This document shows, in pieces, positions 1 to 51,694 of a stretch of 57,047 nt of DNA. This DNA comes from a virus. Taxonomy: Duplodnaviria; Caudoviricetes. The position numbers and the translations under genes are program-made. The notes beneath the pieces were generated by a model. The model was not told the DNA's origin. It ran no database searches and was given only the letters and a program-made list of their open reading frames with translations. How positions within the stretch are numbered: position 1 is the stretch's first letter; every line of letters starts with the position of its first letter. Location of the stretch: positions 1-57,047 of IMG/VR virus record IMGVR_UViG_3300018080_000022, one strand, 5' to 3'.

Positions 1-123
1 AAACCCCCTTCAAGCGCTTCGTCCGCCCGCAATACACGCAGCGTTTATGAGTCGGCTCCGGCAGGTTTTTGTTAATCATGGTTATTCCCCGAGCAGCTTA
101 GTCAATCCGCTTCGAATTTTCTT
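1..123. repeat. Terminal direct repeat (identical to 56925-57047); circular-assembly overlap
   Basis: 123-bp exact match between the two ends; minus-strand genes read continuously across the junction. Confidence 0.95.
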
Positions 124-1053: not shown

Positions 1054-1427
1054 TTTTCCACTTCCGCTTCGACGTTATCGGCTATCCGCTCCAATTGCTG
1101 CCAACAGGCCCCGTTTTTGGGACAACCCAGGCAGGCAAGCGTACATATCTTATAACTCTTGATATCCTCTTTCTTATTGTTGCAGTACTTCCTTATCGCG
1201 GTTCGCATCACCCATATGATGTTGTCGAGCTCTTCGACGCGCTTTTTCATGTCTTTACCGTCCTGAATCTTTTTTATCTCCGCCTCGACTTTTGCTTCCG
1301 CGCTTTCAAGCTGCGCCTTGTCTACCTGGTGGCCGCATTCGCACGGCGGTCTGTCGGTAAGCTTGCCAGTCCAGCTAACCCGTTCGCCGCACTTCGGGCA
1401 CGTCGCGTCATTGAACCCGTTTATCAT
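1050..1427 (-). CDS. Hypothetical zinc-ribbon protein
   Basis: CPKC, CECG and C-rich C-terminus; start/stop overlap with the downstream gene. Confidence 0.6.
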   Translation of the reverse strand: MINGFNDATCPKCGERVSWTGKLTDRPPCECGHQVDKAQLESAEAKVEAEIKKIQDGKDMKKRVEELDNIIWVMRTAIRKYCNNKKEDIKSYKICTLACLGCPKNGACWQQLERIADNVEAEVEK

Positions 1428-1580
1428 CTTTTTTCTCCTCCTCCAACATCTTTTCCCAATGCGCTATCGACTCTTCCAGGGTCGTTATCTTCTCGCCTCA
1501 GTTCACACAACTGCCATGCCGAAGGCTCGCAAGCATAAGCCGCGTGACAACGGACTTGTCCCTCGTTTTTGGAGTATGTC

Positions 1581-1922
1581 TCATTGTTCTTTCCCGCTCA
1601 CTACCTTTTCCATCCAGGCGACGTAATCGGGGCCGGTTTCAGAAATGCCTTCCGGTACATCCTCGTAGAGAATGTACTTGCCCGGCACGTCGTCCGCGCC
1701 GTCAAGCTTGTCCTCGCGCGCGAACAAGACCTTGCGCCCGAGCTCCTTTTCAATATAGTCGATTACCCGCTGTCGCAGGCCGGGGTTTTCGCAGAAGTTC
1801 CTCTTGCTCCACCCTACGACATAAGCGATGTCTTTGTTCGGCGGCCTTTCAAGGTCTTCGAGCAGTTCAACGAGCTTCACCCGGCCGTCGAACAACAGGT
1901 TCGACCGCAGTTCTTCGTTCAT
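1581..1922 (-). CDS. Hypothetical protein
   Basis: Fits the tightly packed minus-strand run. Confidence 0.55.
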   Translation of the reverse strand: MNEELRSNLLFDGRVKLVELLEDLERPPNKDIAYVVGWSKRNFCENPGLRQRVIDYIEKELGRKVLFAREDKLDGADDVPGKYILYEDVPEGISETGPDYVAWMEKVVSGKEQ

Positions 1923-1925
1923 GAT

Positions 1926-2462
1926 TTACCCCTTCAACAGGTTTTCCGCCTCTACATTTGTTTCGCTGAGCATTATCAACTTGTCTTTTGGATGCCCGTG
2001 AACCAAGCCTATCAGGAATATCGCTATCCCCACCTGGCCCCATTTCTTCGGCGAATAGCGTTTCCGCTTGTCCCAAACCACTTCCATCCTCATCTTCGTG
2101 AAGTCGTTTATAACCATAGTCACCTGCGGAATAGGCTTGCCGTTCTCGGGATTGGGCTCGCTGTTTTTCCCGTCGCCTTCGAGCGGCATCACCGCCATCG
2201 GAACATTGCACTCCGGGTGACCGTCGTTTTCATATCTTATAAAAGCGTCTTGAAGGAACGGCCTGGCATCGTCTTCGCTCATAATCAACCCGTAACCCAT
2301 GTCATCTTTGCGGTAGTAGCAGCGCACCGCTATCCTGCCCCATATAAATGGGGCTTCCTGCACCGGAGCGGGGAAGAAGGTTAGCTTCTTCGCGCCGTAA
2401 GGGCTTAACAGCCGCGTCACGCCGATTACCTGCCATGATTCCTGTAGTTTACGAGTTCTCAT
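1926..2462 (-). CDS. Hypothetical protein
   Basis: Fits the minus-strand run, overlapping the upstream stop. Confidence 0.55.
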   Translation of the reverse strand: MRTRKLQESWQVIGVTRLLSPYGAKKLTFFPAPVQEAPFIWGRIAVRCYYRKDDMGYGLIMSEDDARPFLQDAFIRYENDGHPECNVPMAVMPLEGDGKNSEPNPENGKPIPQVTMVINDFTKMRMEVVWDKRKRYSPKKWGQVGIAIFLIGLVHGHPKDKLIMLSETNVEAENLLKG

Positions 2463-2964
2463 ATAATTCCAGTTTCGCCGAATAAGGAACGTAAAGCGGA
2501 TGTTTCGGGGAGCCGTTCTTGGTCTTCCCGAGGCAGTAGAGCTTGTCGCGGTGTTTCCTCAGCAACTTCAAGACCTTTTCGGCCCGCTCGCACGCCGCCT
2601 TGTGAGCGCCCCAGGCCACGACGACTTCTCCGTTCGGGTATTCGCGGGCAAGGCGGCTTATGTACCTGCCGTTCAAGGGGCCTACCGGGTCGGGATGGTC
2701 GAGCAGGGCCTTCGGGTCGGTCGAGATAAGCGCGAAGAGATTGACGACATGAAATCCGCCATTGCCATTGCGGATAGCAAATTTCATACACCTGGTCACG
2801 GTCGGGTCGAGCTTGTTTTCGTCTGCGGTGCTCGGATTGAGCATTATGAAAACAATCATGGGCCGGTCGTCCCACTTCCGAAACAAATCATAGCGATACT
2901 CGCCGTCGAAGTCGGCCCCCGCCTCGGTAAACAAGTCCGCCTTTTTCCTTCGCTTATGTACCAT
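2449..2964 (-). CDS. DUF1643 family protein
   Basis: YRYDL.R.W, FIMLNPSTAD...DPT..RC, VNLFA..ST.P, VVAWG, LGKTKNGSPKHPLY; start reassigned to the ATG at 2964. Confidence 0.9.
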   Translation of the reverse strand: MVHKRRKKADLFTEAGADFDGEYRYDLFRKWDDRPMIVFIMLNPSTADENKLDPTVTRCMKFAIRNGNGGFHVVNLFALISTDPKALLDHPDPVGPLNGRYISRLAREYPNGEVVVAWGAHKAACERAEKVLKLLRKHRDKLYCLGKTKNGSPKHPLYVPYSAKLELYENS

Positions 2965-3371
2965 TACGCCCTCTTCTTGTATCCGACGCAGACAATGCTC
3001 GCGCGGTCGCGCTTCTTGTCGTACCTTATTTGCACGCGGCCACGGCGAACGCACTTGCCGTCCATGCCGAGCGCGCCGCCATGTTTAATCGCGTGAACGC
3101 AGTCGATACAGTTGCTTATCTCCCTGCCGACGTGGCCGATGGCGACTCCCTTGCCCGAAAGCCTGAACCACGCGACGAAGCCGATTATTGCGAGCACGTT
3201 GTAGGCTGCAAACAACGCCGCCTGGCTGTAGATGTTCATGTTGATGTCGATGATTATCCAGACGGTATTGGCTATAAACCACAAGACGAAGCCGAGCCAA
3301 TGCTTCTTGATAACAAACCAGTTCCCGCCAAGCGATAGCGCGGTTGTAAACCATCCTATTATATTATACAT
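2964..3371 (-). CDS. Short PnuC-like (nicotinamide riboside transporter-like) membrane protein
   Basis: Three hydrophobic helices with GF.LW..AN..WI and AIIGF.AW; start at 3371 behind GAGAGGAGAGG. Confidence 0.6.
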   Translation of the reverse strand: MYNIIGWFTTALSLGGNWFVIKKHWLGFVLWFIANTVWIIIDINMNIYSQAALFAAYNVLAIIGFVAWFRLSGKGVAIGHVGREISNCIDCVHAIKHGGALGMDGKCVRRGRVQIRYDKKRDRASIVCVGYKKRA

Positions 3372-3804
3372 TGCCTCTCCTCTCTCCTCTTGCCACGTTA
3401 AGCATTGTACTGTAAACCAAACTATTAGGTAAAAATGTCTTGAAATACTCGCTGTCATCGCCGTGAAGAACCTTTGCAATCGCCGCGGCGACGGCGGGGC
3501 TCCGGGAAAGCCCGGCTTCGCAATGGCATATAATCGCCTCGACTTTATCCTTGTACTCGTTTACAAAACTCCATATGCGCCCGGCTATCTCCTCGTTGAA
3601 GATAGGCTTTAGCTTTGGATGCGGCTCGCCGAGGTCATAGAACTGGACGTAAAGGATGTCAAACCGGCCGGGAGAAGCTTTCACAAGGGGATAACTGCTT
3701 TTGGGGTCGGTGATAGAGATGAGCACATGATGAATCTCGAAAGGCGTCGTTTCAACCATAATGCGATTGCTTACCAAGACAAGCGGTTTCGGCCTGTTAG
3801 CCAT
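3364..3804 (-). CDS. Protein-tyrosine/dual-specificity phosphatase-like protein
   Basis: HCEAGLSRS (CX5R) catalytic loop; ISITDP and F.D motifs. Confidence 0.85.
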   Translation of the reverse strand: MANRPKPLVLVSNRIMVETTPFEIHHVLISITDPKSSYPLVKASPGRFDILYVQFYDLGEPHPKLKPIFNEEIAGRIWSFVNEYKDKVEAIICHCEAGLSRSPAVAAAIAKVLHGDDSEYFKTFLPNSLVYSTMLNVARGERRGNV

Positions 3805-4279
3805 CTTCCTTCTCCTTTCCCGGCGTTTGCCAGGCGTAGTCGCTCATATCCTCGTGGACGAAGATGGGGTGTTCGAGCTTCTGCAAGAGGCAGAACGGCA
3901 CGAGCCATCGCAGGTTGGTGATAGTGTCTATTGGAAGAATGTAGGCGTTCTTCCAGTCGATTTCTTCGCCAGTATCGTTTGCCCGCGGAAAGTTGCCGCA
4001 GAATATGTGCGTTTTGGCGACGGCCCTGAAGAAGAAGACGGTGCCTCCGGGGCAGACCAGCGTTACCATATGTTTCCATTCCTTCGGGGAGACGCTTATT
4101 CCGGTTTCTTCCTTGAATTCGCGCGACATCGCCTGCTCGGGCGATTCGCCGCTCTCCACCTTGCCGCCTATGCCGTTCCAATACCCGGCCTGCCATTCGG
4201 GCTTAAGCTTGTTGACGAGCAAGACGTGCGGCGCGTCCTTTATGTTGGAATATAAAAATCCGACTACGTAACACTTCAT
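3797..4279 (-). CDS. NUDIX hydrolase
   Basis: GGKVESGESPEQAMSREFKEETG Nudix box. Confidence 0.95.
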   Translation of the reverse strand: MKCYVVGFLYSNIKDAPHVLLVNKLKPEWQAGYWNGIGGKVESGESPEQAMSREFKEETGISVSPKEWKHMVTLVCPGGTVFFFRAVAKTHIFCGNFPRANDTGEEIDWKNAYILPIDTITNLRWLVPFCLLQKLEHPIFVHEDMSDYAWQTPGKEKEDG

Positions 4280-4290
4280 GCTTTTTCTCC

Positions 4291-4875
4291 TTACTTGTAT
4301 TTCATCATTTCCATCAGCGTGACGACGATATCCTCGCCGTTGAGCCCCTTGCCCATCGCTTCTATTCGAAGCCCTAATCGCCTGTCTTCCCCTTCCTTCC
4401 TGGCCACGAAAAGCTCTACCGCGCTGTCCTTCTTGGTCATTTTTACAAGCGCGTCGATGCAGGTCTTGAGAAGTTCGAGGTTCACATATGCGCTCGCGCA
4501 GTTTTCTCGCTTCTTGGGGTTGTTGGCTTCATCCGTGGAGGCTGCCACGTCCGGGAAGTCGCCTTTATCCTCTTTCAGCGTGATGGTAGTTTTGCCATCA
4601 TAGAGAATAAAGGTGTCGTTTCCGCAATCAGAGACGGTGAAATGTTTACCTTCTATCATCTCCGCAAAACCCAACGCCACATCCTTGTCTATAAGGGCGG
4701 TTTCTTTCCTTAGCTTTTCCTGCAAATTGAGGCCGCTTACCACGACGGCATATTTGCCCGTCGTGGCTATCGCTTTACCGTCCCTGGTTAATTGGAGTTT
4801 GCGGAATTTGTACCTCGTGTTTTCATCGGCGGCGAACTGCGCCGCGAGTAAATGTGTTCTTGAGAACATAGTCAC
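4291..4875 (-). CDS. Possible partial DNA polymerase III beta-clamp-like protein
   Basis: FAADENTRYKF..LQL....AIATTGKYAV and GDFPDV resemble the central domain of DnaN (FA.S.DE.R..L....ATDGHRL, G.FPDY). Confidence 0.45.
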   Translation of the reverse strand: MTMFSRTHLLAAQFAADENTRYKFRKLQLTRDGKAIATTGKYAVVVSGLNLQEKLRKETALIDKDVALGFAEMIEGKHFTVSDCGNDTFILYDGKTTITLKEDKGDFPDVAASTDEANNPKKRENCASAYVNLELLKTCIDALVKMTKKDSAVELFVARKEGEDRRLGLRIEAMGKGLNGEDIVVTLMEMMKYK

Positions 4876-5079
4876 TCCTTTTCCAGTATAAGCACATATC
4901 CGTATGTTTTACGTTCGAGCGTTGCTTTCAGCTTTACATGGGCAAATGGGAATATTCCGAGTTGCTTCAGCGCGTGGTCATCCTCCGGCGGGATATCTAT
5001 TGCGAGCCTGCCCTGCTCGTCGAGCTCCACTTCCGGTATTCTCGCAAAAGCGCCGCAATGTGGACATTCCTTCCTCATC

Positions 5080-6027
5080 TCACTCCTCGAACAATGAACA
5101 GTTGCAAACGGGCTGCTCGGGATTTAACCCGAAGTGCTCGTAAACTTTTACCACTTCCTTGCAAAACCCTATCGGGCCGCCGTATCCGAAAGTGCGAAGG
5201 CCCGCGCTAACATCTTCGTAAAGCCTTATCCGCTCCTGGAAAGGCAGGCGCATCTTGAACGCCTTGCCGTACCTGCCGCAGTTGTCGCTTTCGGTTGTCG
5301 CCGCGCGAAGCTTCCTGTCATACCGCCATCCGAAGGCGAAGCGAAGAGAGCCGAGCGTTATCCTTTCGGCCCCGACGCCCGCGCAAGCTTCCATGAAGTT
5401 CATGGGCGACGGCGTACCGCCGAGGTCTTCCGGAATTATAGGGTCTAAGCGAAGCCTTATCCGCCATCCCATGTCTCTAATCTTCTTCGCCGCAATGAGA
5501 CGCTTGGCGACATGCGGCGCGCCGTTTTCGTAATTCGCCGCATTCGGCGACGCGCTGAAGGACACTATAACGTTGTCCTGGGGCTCGTAATTGCGAAGCA
5601 CTTCCACGACGTTTGCGGCCCCTTTAGTGACGAGTAGCATCGTATGACTTTCGAAATGTTTATCCTGCACGATGCCCTTAAGCATCATATCAAGATATCG
5701 CGGGTCGAGGAAGCTGTCCGAAAGCTCGCCAGCATTTAGCATGGCCTTCGGGGTCTTCGCCGCCCACTTCCTAACCTGCTCTTTCATCTCGCTTATGTTG
5801 GTAAAGACGGTCGGGATGGGCTTGTTGTTTTCGAGGGTGTTTCGCATGGTATGCTTCAAGTAGCAGTACGAGCAGTTATATAAACACCCGTTCGCATGCG
5901 AAAGCACGTGGAAGTGCGGACACACGACGCCCTCCGGCGTGGAATCGAACTTCTTCACGAACGGACTAACCCGCCGTCTAAATATCACCCTCGCCTGTGC
6001 TGTGGGTTTCGTCATTTTCAACCTCAT
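5080..6027 (-). CDS. Radical SAM protein, spore photoproduct lyase (SplB)-like
   Basis: GCLYNCSYCYL (CxxxCxxC), GELSDS, LVTK, RLDPII, ITLGSLR, CKE. Confidence 0.85.
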   Translation of the reverse strand: MRLKMTKPTAQARVIFRRRVSPFVKKFDSTPEGVVCPHFHVLSHANGCLYNCSYCYLKHTMRNTLENNKPIPTVFTNISEMKEQVRKWAAKTPKAMLNAGELSDSFLDPRYLDMMLKGIVQDKHFESHTMLLVTKGAANVVEVLRNYEPQDNVIVSFSASPNAANYENGAPHVAKRLIAAKKIRDMGWRIRLRLDPIIPEDLGGTPSPMNFMEACAGVGAERITLGSLRFAFGWRYDRKLRAATTESDNCGRYGKAFKMRLPFQERIRLYEDVSAGLRTFGYGGPIGFCKEVVKVYEHFGLNPEQPVCNCSLFEE

Positions 6028-6376
6028 CTACAAGTTTAAGTGGTCTTAGGGCTTCTTCCCTGGCTTTCGCTTCTTCCCTGGCTTTTTCTGCCGCCCTGGC
6101 TTTTTCTGCCTCGGCTTCTGCCGACGTTTTGTGATGTTTGTACCAGTCCTCTATGTCAAAAATATGACAGATTTCTCCGCCTTCACGAATGCAGATAAAT
6201 ACCTGGTTTGGGTCGAGAAGCGTTCCCTGCGGGCTGCCGGGCCTCACTCTCAAGAAGCCCTTGGTGCATATCACAAGGTCTTTGTTGCCGCACTTCGGGC
6301 ACTCGACGAGCACGGAGCCGATTTCGTGAATACCCTCAGCCCCTTTAATATCTTCGCTGGCCCTGGGGTTTCCCAT
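5978..6376 (-). CDS. Hypothetical zinc-ribbon protein
   Basis: CPKC; GGAGG RBS. Confidence 0.55.
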   Translation of the reverse strand: MGNPRASEDIKGAEGIHEIGSVLVECPKCGNKDLVICTKGFLRVRPGSPQGTLLDPNQVFICIREGGEICHIFDIEDWYKHHKTSAEAEAEKARAAEKAREEAKAREEALRPLKLVDEVENDETHSTGEGDI

Positions 6377-6594
6377 GATTACCTCCCTTTCTAAAGAAGC
6401 TTATCGCCGCATATACAAGCGCTTCGAGGCGGCATTCGCTCCTCTTCTTGTTCCAAAAATGACACGTTTCGTTCTGCACGCACTTTTCCGTGCCCTGCAA
6501 CGCCGCTATCATACAATGTTTTTCTTTGTCAACGGACACATCCACATCCCTTCGTTTGAAAGGTTCCTTGCTAATCGCCCTGCCGCGTCGCCTG

Positions 6595-6987
6595 TCATTG
6601 CCTGGCATTTTTCTTCACCATGTCTTCGAGGATGTTTAGTATCCCGAATTTTTTCACTTTTTCATACAAGTCCGTCAGCTTACCGAGGACTCCGGGGGCC
6701 AGAAAAGTCTTTGTCCGGTTGTATCCCTCCGCTACATTATTTCTTGCATGGGATATCGCATCGACGAGTTCATTCGCTGCATCAAGGGCCTTCCTGCCCT
6801 TGTCAAGAATGTTGTAGCCGGACGAAATCAAGACCTTCGCCTTCCTTATCATCTCCTCGCCGTCAGGCCCTAAAAACTGTTCGACAACCTTCTCCGCATC
6901 CGCCATCTCATCTCCTTTCGATATTCTCCCAAATAGAATTATCAGTTTTAACTTCGTTTTAATCCATAATATCTTCAATCGTGCCAT
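6595..6987 (-). CDS. Hypothetical helical protein
   Basis: Fits the operon; the true start may be the internal ATG of MADAEK. Confidence 0.5.
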   Translation of the reverse strand: MARLKILWIKTKLKLIILFGRISKGDEMADAEKVVEQFLGPDGEEMIRKAKVLISSGYNILDKGRKALDAANELVDAISHARNNVAEGYNRTKTFLAPGVLGKLTDLYEKVKKFGILNILEDMVKKNARQ

Positions 6988-9965
6988 TATGGCTCGCTAT
7001 CCACATCTTTGTCACTTTCCACCCCATCCGCGTCAGAATCTTGCGGGGTTGCGGGGTTAGATGCCGGGTCTGTAAGGATAATTGGAATTTTTCCGTTTTT
7101 GTCCTTCGAGGGTGGTTTTTGCGGGGTTGCGGGGTTAGATGCCGGGTCTGCAAGCCTTTTTTCAGATTTCTCAGGCTCGATTTCTTGCGGGGTTGCGGGG
7201 TTAGATGCCGGGTCTGCAAGCCTTTTTTCAGATTTCGAGCTCGTTTTTCCGGGGGTTTGTGTGGGATTTTCGGCCGATTCTGCGGGGTTGCGGTATTGCG
7301 GTATTAAGTTTGCTATTGCAGCCCCGTCTCGCAAGTTCTTATCATCGTCATCAGGATAAGAACTTGTCCCCATGCGTTGCATACACACATCATAACCCCG
7401 CAACCCCGCAGAGCCATGAAAATCTACTATATCTTGTGGTTTAGAGCCCTCGGTTACACCATCCGTTGGCGGGGTTATGCCGTTTTCCATAACCCCGCAA
7501 GATTTTTCATAACCCCGCAACCCCGCAGAATCCTCTTTTACCTCTGAAAGCACCCAAAGCTTTGTTTTCGCTCGCAGGTCTTGAGCGAAGTCGAGCTTGC
7601 GGGAATTAAAAATCTTACCCGTTAATCTTGAGAGCCGCCTGCCGAGGGAGCGTTTTAAGGAAGCCTCGCCGCGCTCTTTCGCAGACAGAAGGACATCGGG
7701 GACAACCTCGGAAAGCTCGGTTCCTTCCGTGAATATCTGAGAGACAACATCCGCCGTGCTCACGCTGCTTTCGCCGAGGTCGAGATTCCAGGCGTTGAAG
7801 AAAGCGCGCCATTGAAGCCATTCGTCATCCTGATAATTCGAAAGCTTCTTCTGGTTGCTGAGAAAACCCTCTATCCCGGCATTCTGCAAAACCCCTCCGA
7901 CTACCTCGCTCCACTCGACGAAGCTTCCTATAACCGGGATATCCTTCGCCGCCGGTTTGCCAGCGGCATACCACGCCCTGATTATCACGAAAGCCGCCCG
8001 GAGAAGTTCGTATCTGTTTTCACGGACATACCTTTCGAGGTTCGGATGGAGGAAGCTGTTGGGGTCTCGCTCCCACGGTTTTTCGAGATTGCTGTCCAGG
8101 CGCACGGAATAGCAGCGGCGAGGCATATCGCCGGTGACCTTGACGTTGTTGCCCGTGGCAACCCACGTGAGGTTGACCTTGAATTCGAGATTTTTCGACT
8201 GGCCTAAAACGCGGCCCGTGTATCTGTCTGTAGTGAGTATGCTTGCAAGCGGCGCGCTGTCGAGAACTTCGCGCTCGGAGATGTTGTCGAAGAGAACGGC
8301 GGGGCTGCCTTGGTCGAGGATGGCTATAAGCAGCTTTCGCCATTCCTCTTCGGCATACCTGCCGTGCGGAGCGGACTGGCTTGCGAGCTCGTCCCCGAGG
8401 GCGATGATGCTAAGGCTCTTGACGAGCTTACCCTTGCCCGTGCCTTGTGAAGGCGCGTCTACGATACAAAGAGGAACATAGCCATCGATAACACTTCGCA
8501 TCAACATAGTAAAAAGCAGGGAGAGCGAATTCGCCGGGCCGCTTTTATCCGCAAACGGGAAGTCTCGTATCACGTCGAGCAATAATTCGCGGGCGACGGC
8601 GACATCTTCCTCGGATGGCTCGCTTGGAATGGCCTCCATCTTAAAGTCGTCGGGCGGGACGTAGTACATCGCGGTCGCTTCGTCGTAACCGGGCTCAAGG
8701 CAAATAGAGCCGTCGTCGCGCAGAATGGGAGCGCCGGTTATAGCCCTCAAGGGAGGGAATGGCCATGAGCCGCAAACAAGGACGGACTCCACCACGGCAT
8801 CGGGAGGGGATTTGAAATGTTCGCCTTCCTCGCTTATATAAACGAAGCGCGCGCACTCGGCCAGCCGCAGTCTCATAGATGCCTTCGAGTATATATCTAC
8901 GGAAATATGACCGTCTTCGTCGCGGAGCACGCGCGTGAGCCTTCCCATTCGAACGAAAATACATGGCGGGTCGTTCTTCTCGTCGAGGGCGTTAATCGCC
9001 TGGCGGGTCAGCGAATCGAGCAGGTAGTCGTTCATGACTATCTTCGGGAGCTTGAAATCTGTTTCGGGGTCAACGGGAACAAAATCGACGGCCTTGTCGA
9101 GCAGTTCTTTCAGCTTCTTACGCAAATCTTTTTCATGGCGGAGCTTTTCATCGAGGTCTTTCTTGTCCGCGGGGACATATTTTACCTTACATTGCACGTT
9201 GAGAAGCAATTCCCCGAGCGTGTTAAGCCACTTTCGGCCCGAGGCCCGCGGGTCGGGGAAGAGGATAGCCTCGCGGTTGGCGAGCAGTTTTTGCAGGGCC
9301 GCGTCGCCAATTGGCCCGGCGCTGCTGCCCGCCGTACCGATTACGCTGTTGGCCCCGGCGGAAATCGCCGCAAGCGTGTCGGCCTCGCCTTCGAGGACGA
9401 GCACGGGGCCTTCAGCGGGGAGCTCCTTCGGGTAGAAGAGGCCGTGCTTGTTGCCGCGCGGCGTATAGCTTTTCACGGATTTGTTATACCATTGGAACAT
9501 GGTATTGTTGCCCTTGCGCTTCTTAATTCCGACGACGTTCCCGTCGCCGTCGCGCATCGGGAAGATAACGCAGTCCTTATCCGAACGGCAGTCGATGAGC
9601 TCGAAAGCGTGAATGCTCCAATTACGCAGGCTTGCGAGCATGTTAATCGGGTCAACAGGCTTATAAGCCTTGTCGGTCGGGCCGGGAATTCCAAACTCCG
9701 TCCTGAGCCAGTTGGCTGCATCGCGGGCTTCGAGGCCGAGCACCTGCATGGTTAGCCCGAGGTTGTCCTTGGCTATTCCGCACTTGAAGCATCTAACGAG
9801 ATTCTTGTTGCCGCCGACTTCGCAGGCCGGGCTCTCGTCGTCATGCTCGTGATGGGTAAACGGGCACTTTATCCAAACCTTGTCGCCGTGCTCACGGGTA
9901 GGGATGTTGAGCGCCTGGACAACCTTTAACACGGGGATATCAAGTATGTTCGTTTCGAGAGTCAA
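6987..9965 (-). CDS. Primase-helicase replication protein (CHC2-type zinc finger, TOPRIM, P-loop ATPase)
   Basis: CPF..H.H.D..P.C...CFKC zinc finger; IFPMRD..G..VG; LEGEADTLA and FPDP TOPRIM motifs; APSQGTGKG Walker A, LFDN Walker B, ATGNN, DM.RR. Confidence 0.85.
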   Translation of the reverse strand: MTLETNILDIPVLKVVQALNIPTREHGDKVWIKCPFTHHEHDDESPACEVGGNKNLVRCFKCGIAKDNLGLTMQVLGLEARDAANWLRTEFGIPGPTDKAYKPVDPINMLASLRNWSIHAFELIDCRSDKDCVIFPMRDGDGNVVGIKKRKGNNTMFQWYNKSVKSYTPRGNKHGLFYPKELPAEGPVLVLEGEADTLAAISAGANSVIGTAGSSAGPIGDAALQKLLANREAILFPDPRASGRKWLNTLGELLLNVQCKVKYVPADKKDLDEKLRHEKDLRKKLKELLDKAVDFVPVDPETDFKLPKIVMNDYLLDSLTRQAINALDEKNDPPCIFVRMGRLTRVLRDEDGHISVDIYSKASMRLRLAECARFVYISEEGEHFKSPPDAVVESVLVCGSWPFPPLRAITGAPILRDDGSICLEPGYDEATAMYYVPPDDFKMEAIPSEPSEEDVAVARELLLDVIRDFPFADKSGPANSLSLLFTMLMRSVIDGYVPLCIVDAPSQGTGKGKLVKSLSIIALGDELASQSAPHGRYAEEEWRKLLIAILDQGSPAVLFDNISEREVLDSAPLASILTTDRYTGRVLGQSKNLEFKVNLTWVATGNNVKVTGDMPRRCYSVRLDSNLEKPWERDPNSFLHPNLERYVRENRYELLRAAFVIIRAWYAAGKPAAKDIPVIGSFVEWSEVVGGVLQNAGIEGFLSNQKKLSNYQDDEWLQWRAFFNAWNLDLGESSVSTADVVSQIFTEGTELSEVVPDVLLSAKERGEASLKRSLGRRLSRLTGKIFNSRKLDFAQDLRAKTKLWVLSEVKEDSAGLRGYEKSCGVMENGITPPTDGVTEGSKPQDIVDFHGSAGLRGYDVCMQRMGTSSYPDDDDKNLRDGAAIANLIPQYRNPAESAENPTQTPGKTSSKSEKRLADPASNPATPQEIEPEKSEKRLADPASNPATPQKPPSKDKNGKIPIILTDPASNPATPQDSDADGVESDKDVDSEP
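7041..7527. repeat. Iteron-like GCGGGGTT octamer array (putative replication origin) within the primase-helicase 3' end
   Basis: GCGGGGTT at 7043, 7051, 7121, 7129, 7187, 7195, 7282, 7469; inverted AACCCCGC at 7394, 7402, 7491, 7511, 7519; three 32-bp direct repeats at 7041, 7119, 7185. Confidence 0.75.
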
Positions 9966-9973
9966 CGCCGCCT

Positions 9974-10174
9974 CTATTTGCTTACGAGCTCATCTGTCTT
10001 AAGGTTAAGCAGGGCCGCTATGCGCAGGAGACGATGAAGCGCGGGGTTCTTGGTGCCCTCGACGTAGCAGTAGAGGGTGCGGCGGCTTATTCCAACCGCT
10101 TTTGCGAAGGCTTTCATGGTGTAACCGGCCTTCTTGATATGTTCCCGAAGCGCTTTACCGTCTATAAGGTTCAT
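9974..10174 (-). CDS. XRE-family HTH regulator
   Basis: GYTMKAFAKAVGISRRTLY.Y.EG.KNP....L.RIA.LL; start reassigned to 10174. Confidence 0.85.
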   Translation of the reverse strand: MNLIDGKALREHIKKAGYTMKAFAKAVGISRRTLYCYVEGTKNPALHRLLRIAALLNLKTDELVSK

Positions 10175-10187
10175 ACGGCCCCCGGAG

Positions 10188-10586
10188 TTATTTTTTCGAC
10201 TCCGGCGTCTTCTCGGGCTCGGCTTTCGGTGATTCCGCCTTCCGGGACGGCTGAGCCGCATCGCTCGACGGCATTGCCGCATCGCTCGACGGCATTGCCG
10301 CAGTTTTGCTTTTTCTTATAAACTGCTCTTCCGAGCGTAGAAGCTTGCGGTATTTCATGGAGAAATTAACGGCAAGCTGGTTGACCTCTATGATATTTTG
10401 AAGAATTTCCTTCGATTCCTCGTCGGCGTCTTCGACGAGGCCCTTCGTGAGCTCTATCTGCTGCATGTAAAAGTCCGGCGGGATGGTCGAGATAATCGCG
10501 GCCCCCGTTTTGAACTGCGAGCCGAAGCCTATGCCGCGTCCCATCTCCTCCAGCATAGCTACCATTTCCTCATTAACCTGCGTCAT
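10188..10586 (-). CDS. Hypothetical protein with a 21-bp (AAMPSSD) tandem repeat
   Basis: GGAGG RBS; repeat at 10255-10302. Confidence 0.6.
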   Translation of the reverse strand: MTQVNEEMVAMLEEMGRGIGFGSQFKTGAAIISTIPPDFYMQQIELTKGLVEDADEESKEILQNIIEVNQLAVNFSMKYRKLLRSEEQFIRKSKTAAMPSSDAAMPSSDAAQPSRKAESPKAEPEKTPESKK

Positions 10587-10610
10587 TACAACCTCCCAAT
10601 CAGTTCCGTT

Positions 10611-10652
10611 ACACTTGGGGCTACCGCCCTCACACCTGGGGCTACCGCCCTC
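10611..10652. repeat. Intergenic 2 x 21-bp tandem repeat
   Basis: ACAC(T/C)TGGGGCTACCGCCCTC twice. Confidence 0.85.
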
Positions 10653-10706
10653 ACATTTAGACGTGTCGTTTTTAAGGTAAACGCGCCGTCTTTTCCTCGC
10701 ATCTGC

Positions 10707-10735
10707 AATTTACACCCGGTTTTCCGCTTTGTCAA
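10707..10735 (-). promoter_or_regulatory. Putative sigma70 promoter for the replication module
   Basis: TTGACA-17 bp-TAAATT on the minus strand in an intergenic gap. Confidence 0.55.
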
Positions 10736-10765
10736 ACTCTACATCTGTACATAAGAAAAAATTTT

Positions 10766-11077
10766 TCAGTTTTCCCTCCATTCGTCTATCAGTTCCGATA
10801 TTGCCATGCCGTCGCCGTCGATGCGCTCAAGCGTTTCGTTGTCCTTGACGATTATCAATGTAGGCACCGATTTGACGTTGTGAAACGCCGCCTCGGCAAG
10901 CCCGTCAACCGTCGCGGTGTCTAAAATCTCGAAGTCCTCGGCGATAAGTTGAGGCCGCAGGGAAAGCATATCAACCTGGTCTTCGGAGATAAGGCCCTTG
11001 CCGACCATATCCTCGACAAGCTTCGTACATGTGGGGCACTCATCGCCAACAAACAACAATAGTCTCGCTTCACCCAT
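10766..11077 (-). CDS. Thioredoxin/glutaredoxin-like protein
   Basis: CPTC; V.SVPTLII cis-Pro motif. Confidence 0.8.
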   Translation of the reverse strand: MGEARLLLFVGDECPTCTKLVEDMVGKGLISEDQVDMLSLRPQLIAEDFEILDTATVDGLAEAAFHNVKSVPTLIIVKDNETLERIDGDGMAISELIDEWREN

Positions 11078-11156
11078 ACATGTTCCCTTCTGCGCCCGGA
11101 TAACGGGCTACATCAAGATATTTTTAGCCCGGCGAGGAGTCCCCGCCGGGCAATTT

Positions 11157-11798
11157 TTAACCTAACAGCGCGTCGAGGCCGGTAGAAGAGCCCTTCGGCT
11201 TCTTCGGCGTCGTGAAGCGCTCCTCGTCGGGAACGCTCATGACATCGATGCCTTTTTCTTCGAGCTCCTTCACCTTCTCGTCGGTAATGTCCTTTTCCTT
11301 CATTACTTTGACGAGCTTTGTCGGCCTGCATGCCATTATTACACCCGGAACATTCCTTGTCTTCCCGTCTTCGATGCGCTTCAGCGCCTTTTTATGCGCA
11401 AGAAACAGCCACGTCTTACCGACCTCGAAGAACTCGGGAAGCTTGCTTATTCGCTTGGACACGCCCATCTCGGCGGCCTCGCCGACGAACTCTCCCGGCG
11501 AGTAGAAGGAGTCGCCGACCCACATCAGGCCCGCGGGGTCATCCCCCGGCTGGCATGCCGGGCAGGGCCGCAGGGCTTTGGGGTCTGTGCAACCCTCGTG
11601 CTCGCCGAAGAGCTTTTTGGCGTTGATTTGCTGCATGCTTCGCGTGAAGCGAATGGTCTCGCCGCAAACGGGGCACACGGGAATCTCGTAAGGCATCCTG
11701 TCGCACGGAGCCCCGACCGGGCTCGTGAGCAGGTACATACCGCCTTCCTGGGGATACCCGCAGCCCCTTTCTTTTCCGTTAAACTTAATTACCGCCAT
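11157..11798 (-). CDS. Cys-rich hypothetical phage protein
   Basis: RGCGYP..GG.YL, CPVC, CPAC, LMWVG..FY; GGAG RBS. Confidence 0.65.
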   Translation of the reverse strand: MAVIKFNGKERGCGYPQEGGMYLLTSPVGAPCDRMPYEIPVCPVCGETIRFTRSMQQINAKKLFGEHEGCTDPKALRPCPACQPGDDPAGLMWVGDSFYSPGEFVGEAAEMGVSKRISKLPEFFEVGKTWLFLAHKKALKRIEDGKTRNVPGVIMACRPTKLVKVMKEKDITDEKVKELEEKGIDVMSVPDEERFTTPKKPKGSSTGLDALLG

Positions 11799-11978
11799 GA
11801 TTTTCTCCTTTCCGGCATATCCCGGCATGGCTGCAACCGGGGCAAAAGTTCTTCTTCACATACTCTTCGCCGTAGGTCTTGAAGCAGTACTCTCGAAGCC
11901 TTCCCTCTCTGACCGCTTTTTCGGTATGATGCTTGGCAATCTTCGAGGGAGATATTTTCGCTGCTATTTGCTTTTTCA

Positions 11979-12416
11979 TTATCCCCCCAACAGAAAATCG
12001 AGACCGCTGACGCTCTTGCCGTTTCGCCTCTTCGGCGGCGGGGGCGGCGGTTTGTCCTCGTCGAGGGCTTTTTTGACCGCTTCCCGGTGCGCTTCGAGCG
12101 CTTCGGTCTCTCGTTTCTCGCGCCTGGCCCGCTCTCTCGCCTCGGCCTTGGCCTTGTATTTCTTGACGGCTCTTCGGCGTTCGGCTTCGCTTGTGGCTAT
12201 CTGCGCATCGATTGGGTTGATAAATGAACGCTCCTTCAGCTTCAACTTAGCTTCTTCGAGCTCCTTGCCGCAGCGCCTTATCTCGGACTTCGCGGCCCCG
12301 ATTTCTTCGCCAGTCATGGACTTGCGGAAGTGTTTCAAAAACCATTTCAGTTCCCCGATAAAGCGCCTAAAGGCACCTATCGACCGAATGTACAATCTTC
12401 GCGCTTCTTCGCTCAT
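11979..12416 (-). CDS. Hypothetical charged coiled-coil protein
   Basis: AAGGAG RBS before the ATG at 12416. Confidence 0.6.
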   Translation of the reverse strand: MSEEARRLYIRSIGAFRRFIGELKWFLKHFRKSMTGEEIGAAKSEIRRCGKELEEAKLKLKERSFINPIDAQIATSEAERRRAVKKYKAKAEARERARREKRETEALEAHREAVKKALDEDKPPPPPPKRRNGKSVSGLDFLLGG

Positions 12417-12524
12417 ACATTCTCCTTTCAAATTGTCAAAGAACGGGAGGATTAAGGCCCTCATCCCGCCGCCCCTGGGCCGGACGATTAAGAAACCATC
12501 CAGCTTAGGCGGCGAGTGAAGGTC

Positions 12525-12896
12525 TTAGTTTTTGGAAACCTTATTAATTGCTTTAGAGGCAGCTTCTTGAGCCTTCAAAACCCCGTGACATGCGAGGCAG
12601 TAAATTAAACCCCTACAATCAACAACCTCATCATCTCTAAATAATCTTTCACATCGACAACAAACATGATTACTTGTTAGTTCCCGGAAAAGAACTTTGA
12701 AGTCTTCCATGAGCTCAAGGATGTTACCGTCGATATCTTTTTCCAAGACGGTAGTACCATCAGACCATCGGATAAACTTGAGGGAACTGCCGCATTTCTC
12801 CACTTCCCATCCAAGTTTCCTTGCGTATTTCGCGGCCTGGTCAACATTCTCGTTTTTCTCGAATACGATAGTCTTATTCTCGCTATCGAACTTCAT
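12525..12896 (-). CDS. Hypothetical protein with a C-terminal zinc finger
   Basis: GGAGG RBS; CCRC...CLAC. Confidence 0.6.
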   Translation of the reverse strand: MKFDSENKTIVFEKNENVDQAAKYARKLGWEVEKCGSSLKFIRWSDGTTVLEKDIDGNILELMEDFKVLFRELTSNHVCCRCERLFRDDEVVDCRGLIYCLACHGVLKAQEAASKAINKVSKN

Positions 12897-13316
12897 GATT
12901 ACCTCCCAAATTTTCAAAGAACGGAAAGGAACAAGGCCCTTATCTCTTCGCCCTGGGGATTAGTCGCTTAAGGCGGGTAGTGGTTTTTTCTGTATGTGGT
13001 TGTGGAGAAAAAGCCCGCTTAGCGCCGCAGGACGAAGAGTAAAGGTCTTATCTCATAGGCATCCTCCCTTCGAATCGCCTATTTTTTCGGAAGCTTTACG
13101 GTCATTCCGAAAAACTTTGCATCCTTGTCGAGGTTCGCCTTGCCGTGGGTGCGCGGAAGAAAGCACATTTCCTCCGCTTCCTTCAGGCCCCCGTGCTCGA
13201 ATATTCCGTTCACATCATGCCCTATCTGAGAGAGGGTTTCCGTGAACTTCAAGCCCCTCATCCCGCCGCCCCGTTCGGACGTAGCATAGAAATGCTCAAG
13301 GCGGCGAGTGAAGGTC

Positions 13317-13574
13317 TTAAATGAAGAAACGGTACTTGGCGCGGCCAATCAGGACGGCCTCTCCGTTGCGCCTGAGCGTCATGAGCGCGCTTCTAATCCG
13401 GATGCGGTGTTTTTCCTCGTTTCGCCACATCTCATACTCGTCAGGGCGAAGCGCCCCGGCTTCCTTCCGGTGCTTCATGGTGATGTCCACTATCTCATCA
13501 AGAACAAGAACGTCCTTGGACTGCGCCTTGACGGCTTCGCGGATGCTGTCCGCATAGCTCTCCGTCTTTTCCAT
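13317..13574 (-). CDS. Small, possibly winged-helix protein
   Basis: IRSALMTLRRNGEAVLIGRAKY resembles a wHTH wing; RBS present. Confidence 0.5.
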   Translation of the reverse strand: MEKTESYADSIREAVKAQSKDVLVLDEIVDITMKHRKEAGALRPDEYEMWRNEEKHRIRIRSALMTLRRNGEAVLIGRAKYRFFI

Positions 13575-13657
13575 ATAAACCCCTTTCCGTTTTGTCAAAG
13601 AACAAGGCACAAGGCCACTATCGCATCCCCCGTTCCACCGGGGGATGAGTAGTGGTC

Positions 13658-13861
13658 TTATTTTTCGGGCTTCGGCTCGCAAGCTTCCAGAAATTTTCCG
13701 ACCTTGAAAAGCTTGTTATCTTCCGTGAACATGAAAGAGAACTCGTTCCGGATATAGTTTACAACCCTTAATTCTTCCGGGGTTTTGAACTCTTCCTTGG
13801 CTTCGCGGATGATTCTCGCCGCATCCTCGTAGTGGCGCTTTGCGTACCTCGGTTTGGACAT
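13658..13861 (-). CDS. Small conserved-looking phage protein
   Basis: KRHYE..A.II...F.EDN..F...KFLEAC; AGGAGG RBS. Confidence 0.65.
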   Translation of the reverse strand: MSKPRYAKRHYEDAARIIREAKEEFKTPEELRVVNYIRNEFSFMFTEDNKLFKVGKFLEACEPKPEK

Positions 13862-13878
13862 GTTCGCCTCCTTAAAAA

Positions 13879-13914
13879 GCAAAAGGGACAGGCCATCACC
13901 CCGTCCCCTTTTGC
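13879..13914 (-). terminator. Putative intrinsic terminator after the first early gene
   Basis: GCAAAAGGGGAC...GTCCCTTTTGC hairpin followed by a T-run on the minus strand. Confidence 0.55.
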
Positions 13915-13931
13915 CTCGTAGAACTCGCGTT

Positions 13932-14372
13932 CTACTTCTTGGTTTTGGACTTTGCCTTGGAGCTCTTCTTCGCCGCTTTCTTCGCGGGCTTCTTGGCCTT
14001 TGACGGCTTCGCAGCCTTTGACTTCTTCGCGGGTTTGCTCCCGGCATTCTTCGGCTTGGCCTCATTCTTGGCCTTCGCCGCCTTTGGAGGCTTGAACCAG
14101 CTTAACACCTTCTCCCACGTCACTTCGCCCTCTTGGAGGCCGTGCATCAGGCAAATCAGCGCGTGCGCGACCGCCCAATTCTTGCCGACGTACTTCGGCG
14201 CGCCCTTGTCGTCTTCGCCGACCGGCAGCTTGCCGATGTATTCCCGGCTCTCGTGGCACATCTTCATGTATTCCACCTTCACCGGGCTGGGATTTTTGTC
14301 AAGCTTTACCTGGTTTGTACTAACCGGGTTCACTTGCGCCCCTGGATTGCCATGCGCTTTTTCTGCGTCCAT
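13932..14372 (-). CDS. Protein with a Lys/Ala-rich histone H1-like tail
   Basis: AAGGAG RBS; C-terminal KPAKKSKAAKPSKAKKPAKKAAKK. Confidence 0.7.
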   Translation of the reverse strand: MDAEKAHGNPGAQVNPVSTNQVKLDKNPSPVKVEYMKMCHESREYIGKLPVGEDDKGAPKYVGKNWAVAHALICLMHGLQEGEVTWEKVLSWFKPPKAAKAKNEAKPKNAGSKPAKKSKAAKPSKAKKPAKKAAKKSSKAKSKTKK

Positions 14373-14483
14373 AGCATTCTCCTTTCGGGTAAAAAAGAAA
14401 TTAGAGTGTATAGAAACGCAGACGGTGATGGCGTCTGCATGGCATCCTGCCTTATTGTCAAAGAACATGATTACTACTCCGAT

Positions 14484-14512
14484 AGTGTACCACAGGGTCA
14501 CACTAAAGTCCA
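14484..14512 (-). promoter_or_regulatory. Putative leftward early promoter (extended -10)
   Basis: TGGACT-17 bp-TACACT with TG at the extended -10 position, followed by a boxA-like GTTCTTTGACAA (14466-14455). Confidence 0.6.
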
Positions 14513-14836
14513 GAATTATTTTTGAAATATTTTGCGAATCGTCATAAGTCCTTACGACATAAGTACTTACGACGATAAAAATATTTCCCGAGACGCCTGA
14601 AAAATCTTTCATGGGCTTGATGTAATCTCTTCCGGCACAAGGGTTTACATCTCGCATGCTTTTTTGGGGCAGTTCCCGTCATTGTTCCATGACGCTTCCG
14701 CCGATATCGGCGACGGATATCGGGGCCAATAAATTTTTAGCTTTCGGCGGATTTTCGCTTGACGAAACGAGATGCGGGATGCACTATGTGATGCGAAGAA
14801 AAGACCGTAGCCAAGAGAGAAAAGCCTTGTTGGTTT

Positions 14837-17286: not shown

Positions 17287-17910
17287 ATGAACCAACAGCG
17301 TTCATGGCGGGCTTTCTCTTTAGGGATGGCGATGCCGATAAACGAACTTTGCACTACGATGGGAGATGGAACGCCGGTCAGAGTCCGGCGCATCCTTATC
17401 CCCAACGGCAATGCCGGAATAATGGTAAGCGCTGGCAAGATAGTCGAGCTTATCCGCGAGTATTCCGGCAACGAAGACCCCGCCTCGCAGACGCGCATCC
17501 GCTTCCTCGCCGAAGACATCACCCGCCCATGCCGTTCGAAGGACTACCTCTGCAACGTCCGTAAAATTTACGACTGGATGCTCAGGAACATCAAATGGGA
17601 CAGAGACCCGGACGGCAAAGAAATGCTCCGCTCGCCCATCGTCACGCTCGACCGCCGCGTCGGCGACTGCGACGACCATACCATTCTTATGGGCTCTCTG
17701 ATAAAGAGCATGGGAATTCCGGTGCGAATCGTATTAGTGGCGTCATATAAGCCCGAGGTCTTCAACCACGTCCTAATAGAAGCGCTTGTCCCGGTCGAAG
17801 GAAAAATGAAATGGATTGCGGTCGATACAACGCCGTTAAATGTAAACGGCAAGCTATTCCCGTTCGGCGTGAGGCCGCGAGCATACAAGTACAAGGTTCT
17901 GGAGGTATAA
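17287..17910 (+). CDS. Transglutaminase-like (papain-fold Cys-His-Asp) protein
   Basis: I.W.RDP.G.E.L.SP..TL....GDCDDH..L..SL..S.G, FNHV, W.AVDTT. Confidence 0.85.
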   Translation: MNQQRSWRAFSLGMAMPINELCTTMGDGTPVRVRRILIPNGNAGIMVSAGKIVELIREYSGNEDPASQTRIRFLAEDITRPCRSKDYLCNVRKIYDWMLRNIKWDRDPDGKEMLRSPIVTLDRRVGDCDDHTILMGSLIKSMGIPVRIVLVASYKPEVFNHVLIEALVPVEGKMKWIAVDTTPLNVNGKLFPFGVRPRAYKYKVLEV

Positions 17911-44138: not shown

Positions 44139-44139
44139 C

Positions 44140-46057: not shown

Positions 46058-46069
46058 GTTACCCCTCCA

Positions 46070-46175
46070 CGTTGCCTTTGGCAACGGCGTCGCCAGCCGG
46101 GCGGTTTTTACCGCCTGCCCCCGCCAGTCTTTTCTGCGCAGCAGAAACGACGAGAGGGTTCACGGCGAGAGACAT
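46070..46175 (-). ncRNA. Nested double copy of the structured motif
   Basis: ATGTCTCTCGCCG...CCCTCTCGTC...GACTGGCGGGG...CGGCTGGCGACGC. Confidence 0.6.
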
Positions 46176-46855: not shown

Positions 46856-46859
46856 GATT

Positions 46860-50848: not shown

Positions 50849-50872
50849 GTCTCGCCTCTTTTCTTCGCTATT

Positions 50873-50971: not shown

Positions 50972-51243
50972 AAAAAGGAACGGGAGGCTCCGCTACCTGG
51001 CTACAATCCGCGAATGCCCTACGAGCAATATTAGACGCGGCGGTATCTGTTTTTCACCAGAAGGTTTTCGGCTCTCGCACGGTCGCTCTCTCAGTTCTAC
51101 AGGAAAATCCTGGCGGTGACCCGATTCCGCTACGGAGTAGTATGACGCCACTACTGGCGGCTTGCGCTTACGCGAGTTCACGCAAACTGCGGTGCGTATC
51201 CGCTTGCCTCGGCCTCAGCCTTTCTTCTCGGCCATTCCCTTTT
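50972..51243 (-). ncRNA. Putative ~270-nt multi-branched structured RNA
   Basis: Ends pair (AAAAGGGAATGG/CCGTTCCTTTTT); several internal hairpins; lies in a ~500-bp gap in the gene run. Confidence 0.5.
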
Positions 51244-51694
51244 CAAAGAACTTTATTATTGGGGGAGCTTCAAGGTCTCTCTTCTTCGCTTAAGTGTTTC
51301 CTTGCGAGCTCCCCCACGAAAGCTGCTATAACAAGTTACATCGTTACTCTACACTTGTCCAGAACTTTTTTCAAAAATTCGCCGCATGCCTACTTTCTTG
51401 ACAATCTTCACATGGTGGCACTTGTCGCATTGCAATATATTCGCGTTGGCGCTCGCTGATATTATCCTGTACTTGTGCTTGCACATACCTTGAAGGCATT
51501 TCCCGCAGACGCGGGGCTTCCCTTTTTCCTTATAGAATTCCTTGCCGCAGAGACGGCACGTTGCGAACGCGAAGCTCAAATATAACCTCCAAACAGGGCT
51601 AAAAACACCCGAATGCGGCCCGGCTTCCTGCCCGAAAACGCTACATGTAGCTCCTTTTCGTGGAATCGGTCGAATCGGCAGTTTTCCAGCTACA

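Follow-up and report, generated by a model that had tools for sequence, protein, structure and literature searches.

In the virus record IMGVR_UViG_3300018080_000022 (Duplodnaviria; Caudoviricetes), small early genes encoded on the minus strand are separated by four imperfect stem-loops, E1 to E4, located between positions 12,453 and 13,660 of the window, by which we mean the whole 57,047-bp stretch of DNA analyzed here. The stems are maintained by covariation, and three of the four are followed by a 12-mer that is identical to a motif of rRNA leaders, the two parts standing in the hairpin-then-boxA order of rRNA (rrn) operon leaders. Comparison with two related phages placed the breakpoints of exchanged gene cassettes inside these hairpin-boxA units. 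With a probability of about 0.5, we interpret the units as repeated, rrn-leader-like modules for host Nus factors that lie between early cistrons and are also used as recombination seams. A complete module would read, from 5′ to 3′, a stop codon in the hairpin foot (UAAG...), a hairpin of 21 pairs, a pyrimidine-rich spacer of 6–10 nt, the boxA-like GUUCUUUGAMAA, a Shine-Dalgarno sequence and a start codon. No description of repeated hairpin-boxA modules in a phage was found in the literature searched.

Covarying hairpins and a boxA-like motif

An earlier note on this DNA had placed four minus-strand stem-loops between early genes, and all four were found there. The predicted folding energies are −29.9 kcal/mol (z −5.85) for E1 (13610..13660; 61.5 bits), −35.6 kcal/mol (z −4.80) for E2 (13250..13319; 73.5 bits), −43.3 kcal/mol (z −5.70) for E3 (12932..13050; 64.4 bits) and −46.4 kcal/mol (z −6.15) for E4 (12453..12527; 70.6 bits), and in no case did any of 200 shuffles fold as well. 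The exact word TAAGACCNNNACTC occurs four times in the 57,047-bp genome, each time on the minus strand at one of these hairpins, and the reversed control does not occur. The common anatomy consists of a 21-pair stem with an A.C mismatch (E1, E3 and E4) or an A.G mismatch (E2) and a bulged A on the 3′ arm; an ungapped inverted-repeat finder misses the hairpins owing to this bulge. When the whole genome was folded in a sliding window, E4 ranked second, but the ranking does not discriminate, since the G+C-rich genome has many equally stable folds in coding regions.

Homologous hairpins were present in two relatives, referred to as L005 (two copies, H1' and H3') and L129 (three copies, K1, K3 and K4). 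L005 is a complete 55.5-kb IMG/VR genome with a primase 62% identical to that of the window, and it was the sole IMG/VR relative by primase (a single sequence and alignment). L129 is a 17.5-kb phage-like contig within a metagenome-assembled genome (MAG) of Candidatus Omnitrophota and was the sole match of a strict hairpin-plus-leader pattern among 185,579 species genomes; a looser DNA pattern returned more than 119 loci, presumably chance matches. A primase search of metagenomes gave three loci, one identical to L005 (L127) and two too short, and a search with the cassette gene gC found no relatives.

The mismatch and the bulged A are present in all nine copies. For the four window copies and two homologues, 97.6% of 126 cells are paired, 8 of the 21 pairs have changed on both sides and none of 500 shuffles reached the covariation score. 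With all nine copies from three genomes, standard pairs are formed in 97.4% of 189 cells and changes on both sides affect 9 of the 21 pairs; again the score was reached by 0 of 500 shuffles, and controls slid along the alignment paired in just 39–53%. The covarying stems with a common mismatch and a bulged A, which the earlier note had described from the window copies, are thereby borne out. The copies fall into three types, namely type 1 (E1, H1', K1), type 3 (E3, H3', K3) and type 4 (E2, E4, K4). The upper stems of the three types are wholly different in sequence with the pairing kept, and the apical part varies freely in length. Invariant or nearly so are UAAGACY, ACUC, G-GAU, GG-CUU and the bulged A, while the hairpin loops are not conserved among copies and the overall lengths range from 50 to 119 nt. 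No member beyond these nine turned up when a covariance model built from them was run over the window, the complete relative and the 1.5-Mb MAG. The family is thus restricted to a single part of the early operon. It is no repeat of the host, which rules out an origin from host elements resembling repetitive extragenic palindromes.

Each hairpin begins with TAA. As had been pointed out earlier, this triplet is the stop codon of the open reading frames (ORFs) ending at 13658, 13317 and 12525, and it closes a mini-ORF ending at 13048. An A or a G after the final CTT pairs with the T of the TAA, so the stop codon belongs to the stem. Among the relatives, the hairpin TAA is a real stop in three of five copies, which makes six of nine overall in addition to the mini-ORF. 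Across the whole genome, TAA is the most frequent stop as well (50 of 93 ORFs). The mini-ORF (13048..13062, minus strand), ATG CCT ATG AGA TAA behind AAGGGAGG, has its TAA at the foot of E3 and has no counterpart in L005. It had been read as four codons (MPMR) with a ribosome-binding site; the stop stands, but a two-codon ORF is equally likely, because the GGAGG abuts the first ATG and lies 6 nt from the second.

A scan for intrinsic terminators called none of the four hairpins in their full form, and they have no T-run tail; the same scan does call a hairpin at 13911-13881. A ribosome bypass in the style of T4 gene 60 was rejected on inspection, given that every downstream gene comes with a Shine-Dalgarno sequence and a start of its own and that hairpin lengths vary between 50 and 119 nt.

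Three of the four hairpins are followed by a boxA-like 12-mer that the earlier note did not contain. The 12-mer GTTCTTTGAMAA, read as GTTCTTTGACAA or GTTCTTTGAAAA, lies on the minus strand 6–10 nt after E1 (13592..13603, spacer of 7 nt), E3 (12911..12922, as GTTCTTTGAAAA) and E4 (12433..12444); E2 is the sole copy without one. Two further copies stand behind the putative early promoter (14455..14466) and near a tRNA gene (51251-51240). The pattern GYTCTTTGAMAA occurs exactly five times in the window, always on the gene strand and always in non-coding DNA, where 0.04 occurrences are expected and 0 of 100 shuffles gave as many. In L005 the 12-mer has four copies, on one strand, non-coding and in corresponding places, with none for the reversed control. 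In 11 of 13 occurrences in the three genomes it ends 12–18 nt before a start codon, for example 17 nt before that of gC. In four of the five window copies a hairpin ends 7–10 nt upstream of it. Leaders containing the 12-mer are not structured beyond shuffles (z −0.96 to +1.14), and sequestration of the Shine-Dalgarno sequence by the pyrimidine-rich spacer or the 12-mer was likewise not indicated, such folds being no better than those of shuffles. All five window copies and all four L005 copies lie on the sense transcript, in RNA predicted to be unpaired and downstream of a promoter, the promoter itself being predicted. The TTGACA inside the 12-mer was rejected as a −35 element, since no −10 partner is found at 16–18 nt and the start codon follows within 12–18 nt.

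The published boxA consensus of gamma-proteobacteria is GYTCTTTAANA (PMC5725501). GTTCTTTGACA fits it at 10 of 11 positions. The 12-mer keeps all 8 nt that are recognized in the crystal structure of NusB-NusE as described in PMC3177189. The leaders of 16S rRNA genes were inspected in the phylum of the MAG holding L129: of 61 genomes searched, 28 had a 16S gene, and 25 of these loci were used: in two, the 9-mer that marks the 5′ end of 16S was missing, and a third had just 57 nt of upstream sequence, at least 170 nt being required. G[CT]TCTTT was present 20–170 nt before the 16S 5′ end in 21 of the 25 loci, against a background of 0.042 per 150 nt, and the exact 12-mer GTTCTTTGAAAA, i.e., the one that follows E3, was found in three of the leaders (L147, L148 and L155). 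In 17 of the 21 leaders, the motif was preceded, at a distance of no more than 11 nt, by the end of a hairpin of −10 kcal/mol or better, compared with 155 of 315 random positions.

Further matches were seen in the same material. The MAG of L129 has nine more copies of the 12-mer outside the phage-like contig (contigs C25, C30 and C47, i.e., L165, L167 and L169, and six others), compared with two for the reversed control. Three of them lie in an identical leader after TATAAT that runs off the contig ends within about 100 nt, and Rfam identified no RNA gene in these pieces. A pattern for the 3′ arm of the hairpins, GATNNNGGNCTT, matched 23 of 28 loci (L135-L162) at a fixed place some 410–430 nt into the 16S gene, and a 5′-arm pattern, AAGACYNNNACTC, matched 6 of the 28 about 900 nt into it. 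These arm matches are probably coincidences with conserved rRNA words.

Cassette exchange between relatives

The hairpin array is flanked in all three phages by the same two genes, gB (67 amino acids, 13658..13861), whose stop is the TAA at the foot of E1, and gF (145 amino acids, 11979..12416), which closes the variable array; these and the other early genes named here are on the minus strand. Between them the window has E1, gC, E2, a 5′-truncated gD, the mini-ORF, E3, gE and E4, whereas L129 has K1, gC, K3, a gene of 209 amino acids and K4, and L005 has H1', a full-length gD and H3'. The gene content between the conserved flanks thus differs in all three phages, and each breakpoint lies inside a module. 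E1 has orthologues at 7113-7163 of L005 and 2098-2148 of L129, and E3, which carries a long apical insert, at 7440-7542 and 2430-2530, respectively. The stem of E4 equals that of E2 except for the mismatch base, and the 3′ arm of E4 together with its leader is 98.1% identical to L129 3222-3275.

The cassette genes show the exchange from the other side. gC (85 amino acids, 13317..13574) is present in L129 with 75% amino acid identity and absent from L005. gE (123 amino acids, 12525..12896) shares a domain of 76 amino acids (41% identity) with the 209-amino-acid gene of L129 and is also absent from L005. The gD remnant (13079..13252) is homologous to the full-length L005 gene of 69 amino acids, with the first ~24 codons missing and no leader of its own. 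It adjoins the 3′ end of E2. The gene may be in decay, or translation may begin at a TTG, with the purine-rich 3′ arm as ribosome-binding site.

L129 aligns collinearly with L005 (about 82% identity) save for two exceptions. In the first, gC stands in place of gD, exactly from the 12-mer to the foot of the next hairpin. In the second, a cassette found only in L129 is bounded by a ~47-bp stretch, made up of 3′ arm, spacer and 12-mer, which can be aligned with either end of the cassette. Moreover, the L005 leader after H3' is a chimera with its junction inside the 12-mer, the spacer being of type 3 and the Shine-Dalgarno region of type 4. The modules of the window and L005 are 82–91% identical and the genes 67%. 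The gC genes of the two genomes that carry it differ at synonymous sites, and gC is for this reason taken to be a real gene and the exchanges not to be recent.

The earlier note had offered attC-like cassette boundaries as an alternative and suggested looking for cassette variation between the hairpins in relatives. Three phages with three gene sets and breakpoints inside the modules support the cassette boundary, though not as attC. Integron attC sites likewise form imperfect hairpins that differ in length, contain extrahelical bases and follow each cassette ORF directly. Their core sites are RYYYAAC and GTTRRRY. The phage ends TAAGACC and GGCCTTR do not match these cores and no tyrosine recombinase was found among the 96 ORFs, so attC was rejected. 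The phage breakpoints, furthermore, are spread over a common stretch of ~50 bp and not confined to one nucleotide, and the elements come without an integrase.

Possible functions of the modules

In the mechanism that we favor, the early operon would be driven by the host RNA polymerase, with the hairpins forming the structured halves of an intercistronic module. The single-stranded boxA would recruit host NusB-S10 and other Nus factors during transcription, as in rrn leaders and at the N utilization (nut) sites of lambda, and the elongation complex would in this way retain or regain its resistance to Rho and terminators over untranslated gaps of 90–160 nt. Such gaps would open each time a ribosome stops at a hairpin foot, and Rho could readily enter there; they would be closed by a structured RNA with a Nus-loading site behind it. 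Two features of the genome are in line with this mechanism, namely a canonical terminator-like hairpin within the operon, behind the first early gene, gA, and the boxA copy near the tRNA gene, which fits an antitermination logic because the tRNA transcript is untranslated. The hairpin would occupy the place of boxB, and its invariant lower stem, bulged A and mismatch may point to a protein partner. The best candidate would be host RNase III, whose cut could provide the upstream message with a protective 3′ hairpin; we give cleavage of the stems roughly one chance in three, and the RNase III and boxA readings are compatible. Since the module is the only sequence common to otherwise unrelated cassettes, it may serve as the crossover point for gain, loss and replacement of ORFans. 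Nus binding, antitermination, RNase III cutting and the mechanism of recombination are what we infer from these features taken together.

The modules resemble rrn leaders and lambda nut sites in having a single-stranded boxA on the nascent transcript, a stem-loop beside it and a position downstream of a promoter. In the lambda nut sites, boxA precedes boxB. A lambda-type nut site was rejected on account of the reversed order, the lack of loop conservation and the absence of an annotated antiterminator or N-like protein among the 96 ORFs. The modules also differ from rrn and nut sites in number and place, with four to five copies per genome lying between protein-coding cistrons at 12–18 nt from start codons, and in their stems, which, in contrast to the short boxB, have 21 pairs, are conserved in their lower half and include a stop codon. 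In rrn operons the order is boxB, boxA and boxC from 5′ to 3′, boxA is described as necessary and sufficient for the antitermination complex, and an RNase III site adjoins boxC (PMC10250234). The phage modules share the hairpin-then-boxA order with these leaders, and their motif is identical to that upstream of 16S rRNA.

Several points speak against this interpretation. Position 8 of the boxA consensus is an A, and the phage 12-mer has a G there. E2 is without a boxA and the promoter-proximal boxA is without a hairpin, so the two parts are separable. The boxB is described as dispensable in the rrn operons of E. coli (PMC10250234), and consequently the boxB position of the hairpin explains little of its invariant lower stem. 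In E. coli suhB, a boxA near the Shine-Dalgarno sequence represses translation and promotes Rho termination (PMC5725501); this outcome is opposite to the one proposed, and the sign of a boxA effect here may be either. Folding energy leaves the choice of strand unsettled, with the sense strand ahead in six of nine copies and sums of −325 versus −305 kcal/mol. The hairpin family is known from three genomes only, and the covariation counts rest on three hairpin types. Finally, the rRNA-leader evidence comes only from a single phylum, picked because a relative was binned there.

We consider as a tentative possibility that the modules make up a recombinase-independent, integron-like cassette system of the phage, in which a portable adaptor (stop codon, hairpin, boxA and Shine-Dalgarno sequence) travels with each ORFan. 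Such an adaptor would terminate the incoming ORF, enlist host Nus factors across the junction and offer a homologous landing pad. The product of gA or of gB might then recognize the lower stem as an N-like factor, the stem being a boxB of a novel type.

The stems could also be RNase III sites of the T7 type and nothing more, where cutting would separate the cistrons, the 3′ hairpin would stabilize the upstream message and the 12-mer would be a common translation leader. The T7 early region is not known to have a boxA. Its sites (e.g., R1.1) are, like the phage hairpins, hairpins of about two helical turns with internal distortion (PMC1540722), and in T7, too, they lie between cistrons of an early operon transcribed by the host polymerase. 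By the anatomy set out in that source, all nine copies have about two turns in their 21 conserved pairs, with a bulge and a mismatch mid-stem, and both features count there among the determinants of RNase III reactivity; internal loops and bulges are described there as limiting RNase III to cleavage of one strand, which yields protective 3′ hairpins (PMC1540722). A free apical part above a fixed lower stem would suit such sites, as would the placement in a polycistronic early operon. The sequence conservation of the lower stem and the free variation of the apical part (50–119 nt overall) set these candidate sites apart from those of T7. The processing sites suggested in the earlier note are plausible from the anatomy and the intercistronic position in a same-sense operon, and no phage RNase III gene was found among the 96 ORFs. 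What RNase III sites on their own leave unexplained is the identity of the 12-mer with the boxA of rRNA leaders, and its occurrence after the promoter and before the tRNA gene, where this hairpin family is absent. As RNase III cutting is compatible with the Nus-factor reading and not exclusive of it, we regard cutting as the whole explanation as doubtful.

The 12-mer could act as a translational operator, at which Nus factors or a phage protein would block ribosome loading, so that cassette genes would be off and Rho would terminate, as at suhB. In the 2017 study of suhB, the boxA lies within 50 nt of the start codon and a few nt from the Shine-Dalgarno sequence of a protein-coding gene (PMC5725501), and the spacing of 12–18 nt seen in 11 of the 13 phage occurrences is similar. 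The suhB boxA is described as autoregulatory in the host, single-copy and repressive (PMC5725501), whereas the phage boxA is repeated and paired with hairpins. No start codon is evident behind the tRNA-side site of the window or behind its L005 counterpart, the leader folds show no sequestration of the Shine-Dalgarno sequence beyond chance, and it is hard to understand why all first genes should be repressed by a host factor present from the outset. Such an operator is, in our view, unlikely.

The repeats might persist chiefly for homologous exchange of ORFans, with the hairpins as attenuators at most. This would agree with the three cassette sets between the same flanking genes and with breakpoints that all lie in modules. 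The promoter early stem-loops (PeSLs) of T4-type phages (Arbiol et al. 2010, PMC2839356; Comeau et al. 2014, PMC4122927) are composite motifs of the same layout, stop, stem-loop, Shine-Dalgarno sequence and start. They flank ORFans and mark breakpoints of insertion, deletion and replacement between relatives (PMC2839356), and the same was found for the phage modules. PeSLs, however, are described as holding a strong sigma-70 promoter and a terminator (PMC2839356), while the phage modules have no usable −10 element for their TTGACA and no T-run, and carry a boxA instead. Recombination, moreover, needs identity alone and leaves the compensatory changes in three upper stems unexplained, and the synonymous differences in gC indicate that the exchanges are not recent. 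Recombination scaffolds as the main function are, accordingly, distinctly improbable.

Sites acting at the level of DNA, either duplex or cruciform repeats bound by a regulator or single strands used by a structure-specific recombinase as for attC, would suit palindromic DNA with extrahelical bases that bounds cassettes and whose antisense strand folds about as well in three of the nine copies, but they are very improbable, because no integrase, recombinase or transposase was recognized among the 96 ORFs (Pfam and PHROGs), the ends do not fit the attC cores, and the 20 G.U cells of the sense strand, in a region where all genes are sense, would be A.C mismatches in the antisense. A DNA-level parallel would be the start-associated sequences, or SAS, and their extended form, ESAS, of Cluster K mycobacteriophages (Pope et al. 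2011, PMC3203893), short motifs in one orientation, about half of which are preceded by imperfect inverted repeats with a variable spacer. Departures within the ESAS repeats are described as not supporting RNA pairing, and the authors favor DNA-binding sites (PMC3203893), whereas the pairing of the phage stems covaries, and the sequences are unrelated.

If the Nus-factor reading is true, a hairpin plus boxA before each small early gene would make Nus-factor capture a general, modular adaptor of gene expression, in a phage lineage almost without annotated relatives. Control by boxA is textbook knowledge for rRNA operons and the two lambdoid nut sites, and has recently been seen at a handful of host mRNAs. 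The modules would offer a testable explanation of how long untranslated gaps between phage cistrons escape Rho. After the T4 PeSLs, they would be a second, sequence-unrelated case of regulatory repeats as seams of ORFan shuffling. In addition, the match between phage and host boxA could serve as a signal for host prediction.

Other features of the early operon and the genome

A putative early promoter of the sigma-70 type is located on the minus strand at 14484..14512 (TGGACT, 17 nt, TG-n-TACACT) with an AT-rich stretch upstream. It falls below the threshold of a consensus scan, and its −10 TACACT and the AT-rich stretch are kept in L005 and L129. The promoter-proximal 12-mer, GTTCTTTGACAA, lies 17 nt after the −10 and 14 nt before an ATG; the 17 nt between do not fold, leaving this copy with no hairpin upstream. 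Its counterparts in L005 and L129 read GCTCTTTGACAA. After this 12-mer, L005 (6333-6347) and the same place in L129 have a mini-ORF of four codons (ATG CAG GCG CCC TAA) with its stop in the loop of a small hairpin; at this site the window (14417-14440) has a 36-codon frame instead.

The first early gene, gA (146 amino acids, 13932..14372, minus strand), is 53–55% identical to its homologues in L005 and L129. Its product combines a conserved domain bearing Cys and His with a long basic tail rich in Lys, Ala and Ser, and no Pfam or PHROG match was obtained for it. Together with the product of gB, which has a short basic stretch at its start, it is a family-less candidate nucleic-acid binder. In the gap between gA and gB, directly before the ribosome-binding site of gB, lies a hairpin like a canonical intrinsic terminator (13881..13911, minus strand) with 12 pairs and the T-run tail GCTTTTTAAG (−22.4 kcal/mol, z −3.94), which has a counterpart at 6875-6909 of L005. 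Its placement after gA recalls a switch from immediate-early to delayed-early expression.

The second site with a hairpin and a boxA (51240..51315, minus strand) has an unrelated hairpin (51315-51261; −26.5 kcal/mol, z −4.47), a spacer of 9 nt and then GTTCTTTGAAAA, upstream of a gene for tRNA-Ser(CGA) at 50963-50880. The counterpart in L005 (L166) is likewise a hairpin followed by GCTCTTTGACAA. The window at 51240-51400, with a sigma-70-like promoter-like stretch, the 55-nt hairpin and the 12-mer before the tRNA gene, resembles an rrn-style antitermination leader for an untranslated transcript.

The window is a complete virus record with direct terminal repeats of 123 bp. Contigs from four DNA runs gave pieces identical to it and no joints. 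Against GenBank phages, 4 kb of the hairpin region gave no match and a 117-nt module query returned a single 26-nt match at chance level; Rfam had no match at gathering scores over the whole window and none at E values up to 1 over 12300-14600. Searches of Pfam and PHROGs with the 96 ORFs recognized no integrase, recombinase, transposase, RNase III or RNA polymerase.

Genes are on the minus strand at 1–14,600 and 38,500–57,047 and on the plus strand in between. Only 1 of the 30 ORFs in the plus-strand structural arm has a PHROG match (E value of 1e-5 or better) and 2 of the 30 have a Pfam match (cut-off 1e-4; 0.01 for an ORF of 700 amino acids). Nearly the whole arm (14885-38223) is without a family match, the exceptions being a transglutaminase-like domain at 17287-17910 and two DUFs in a protein of 1187 amino acids (34660-38223). 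At the point where genes of the plus strand and of the minus strand converge, a pair of hairpins set back to back, with T-runs on both strands (38341-38423), resembles a bidirectional terminator.

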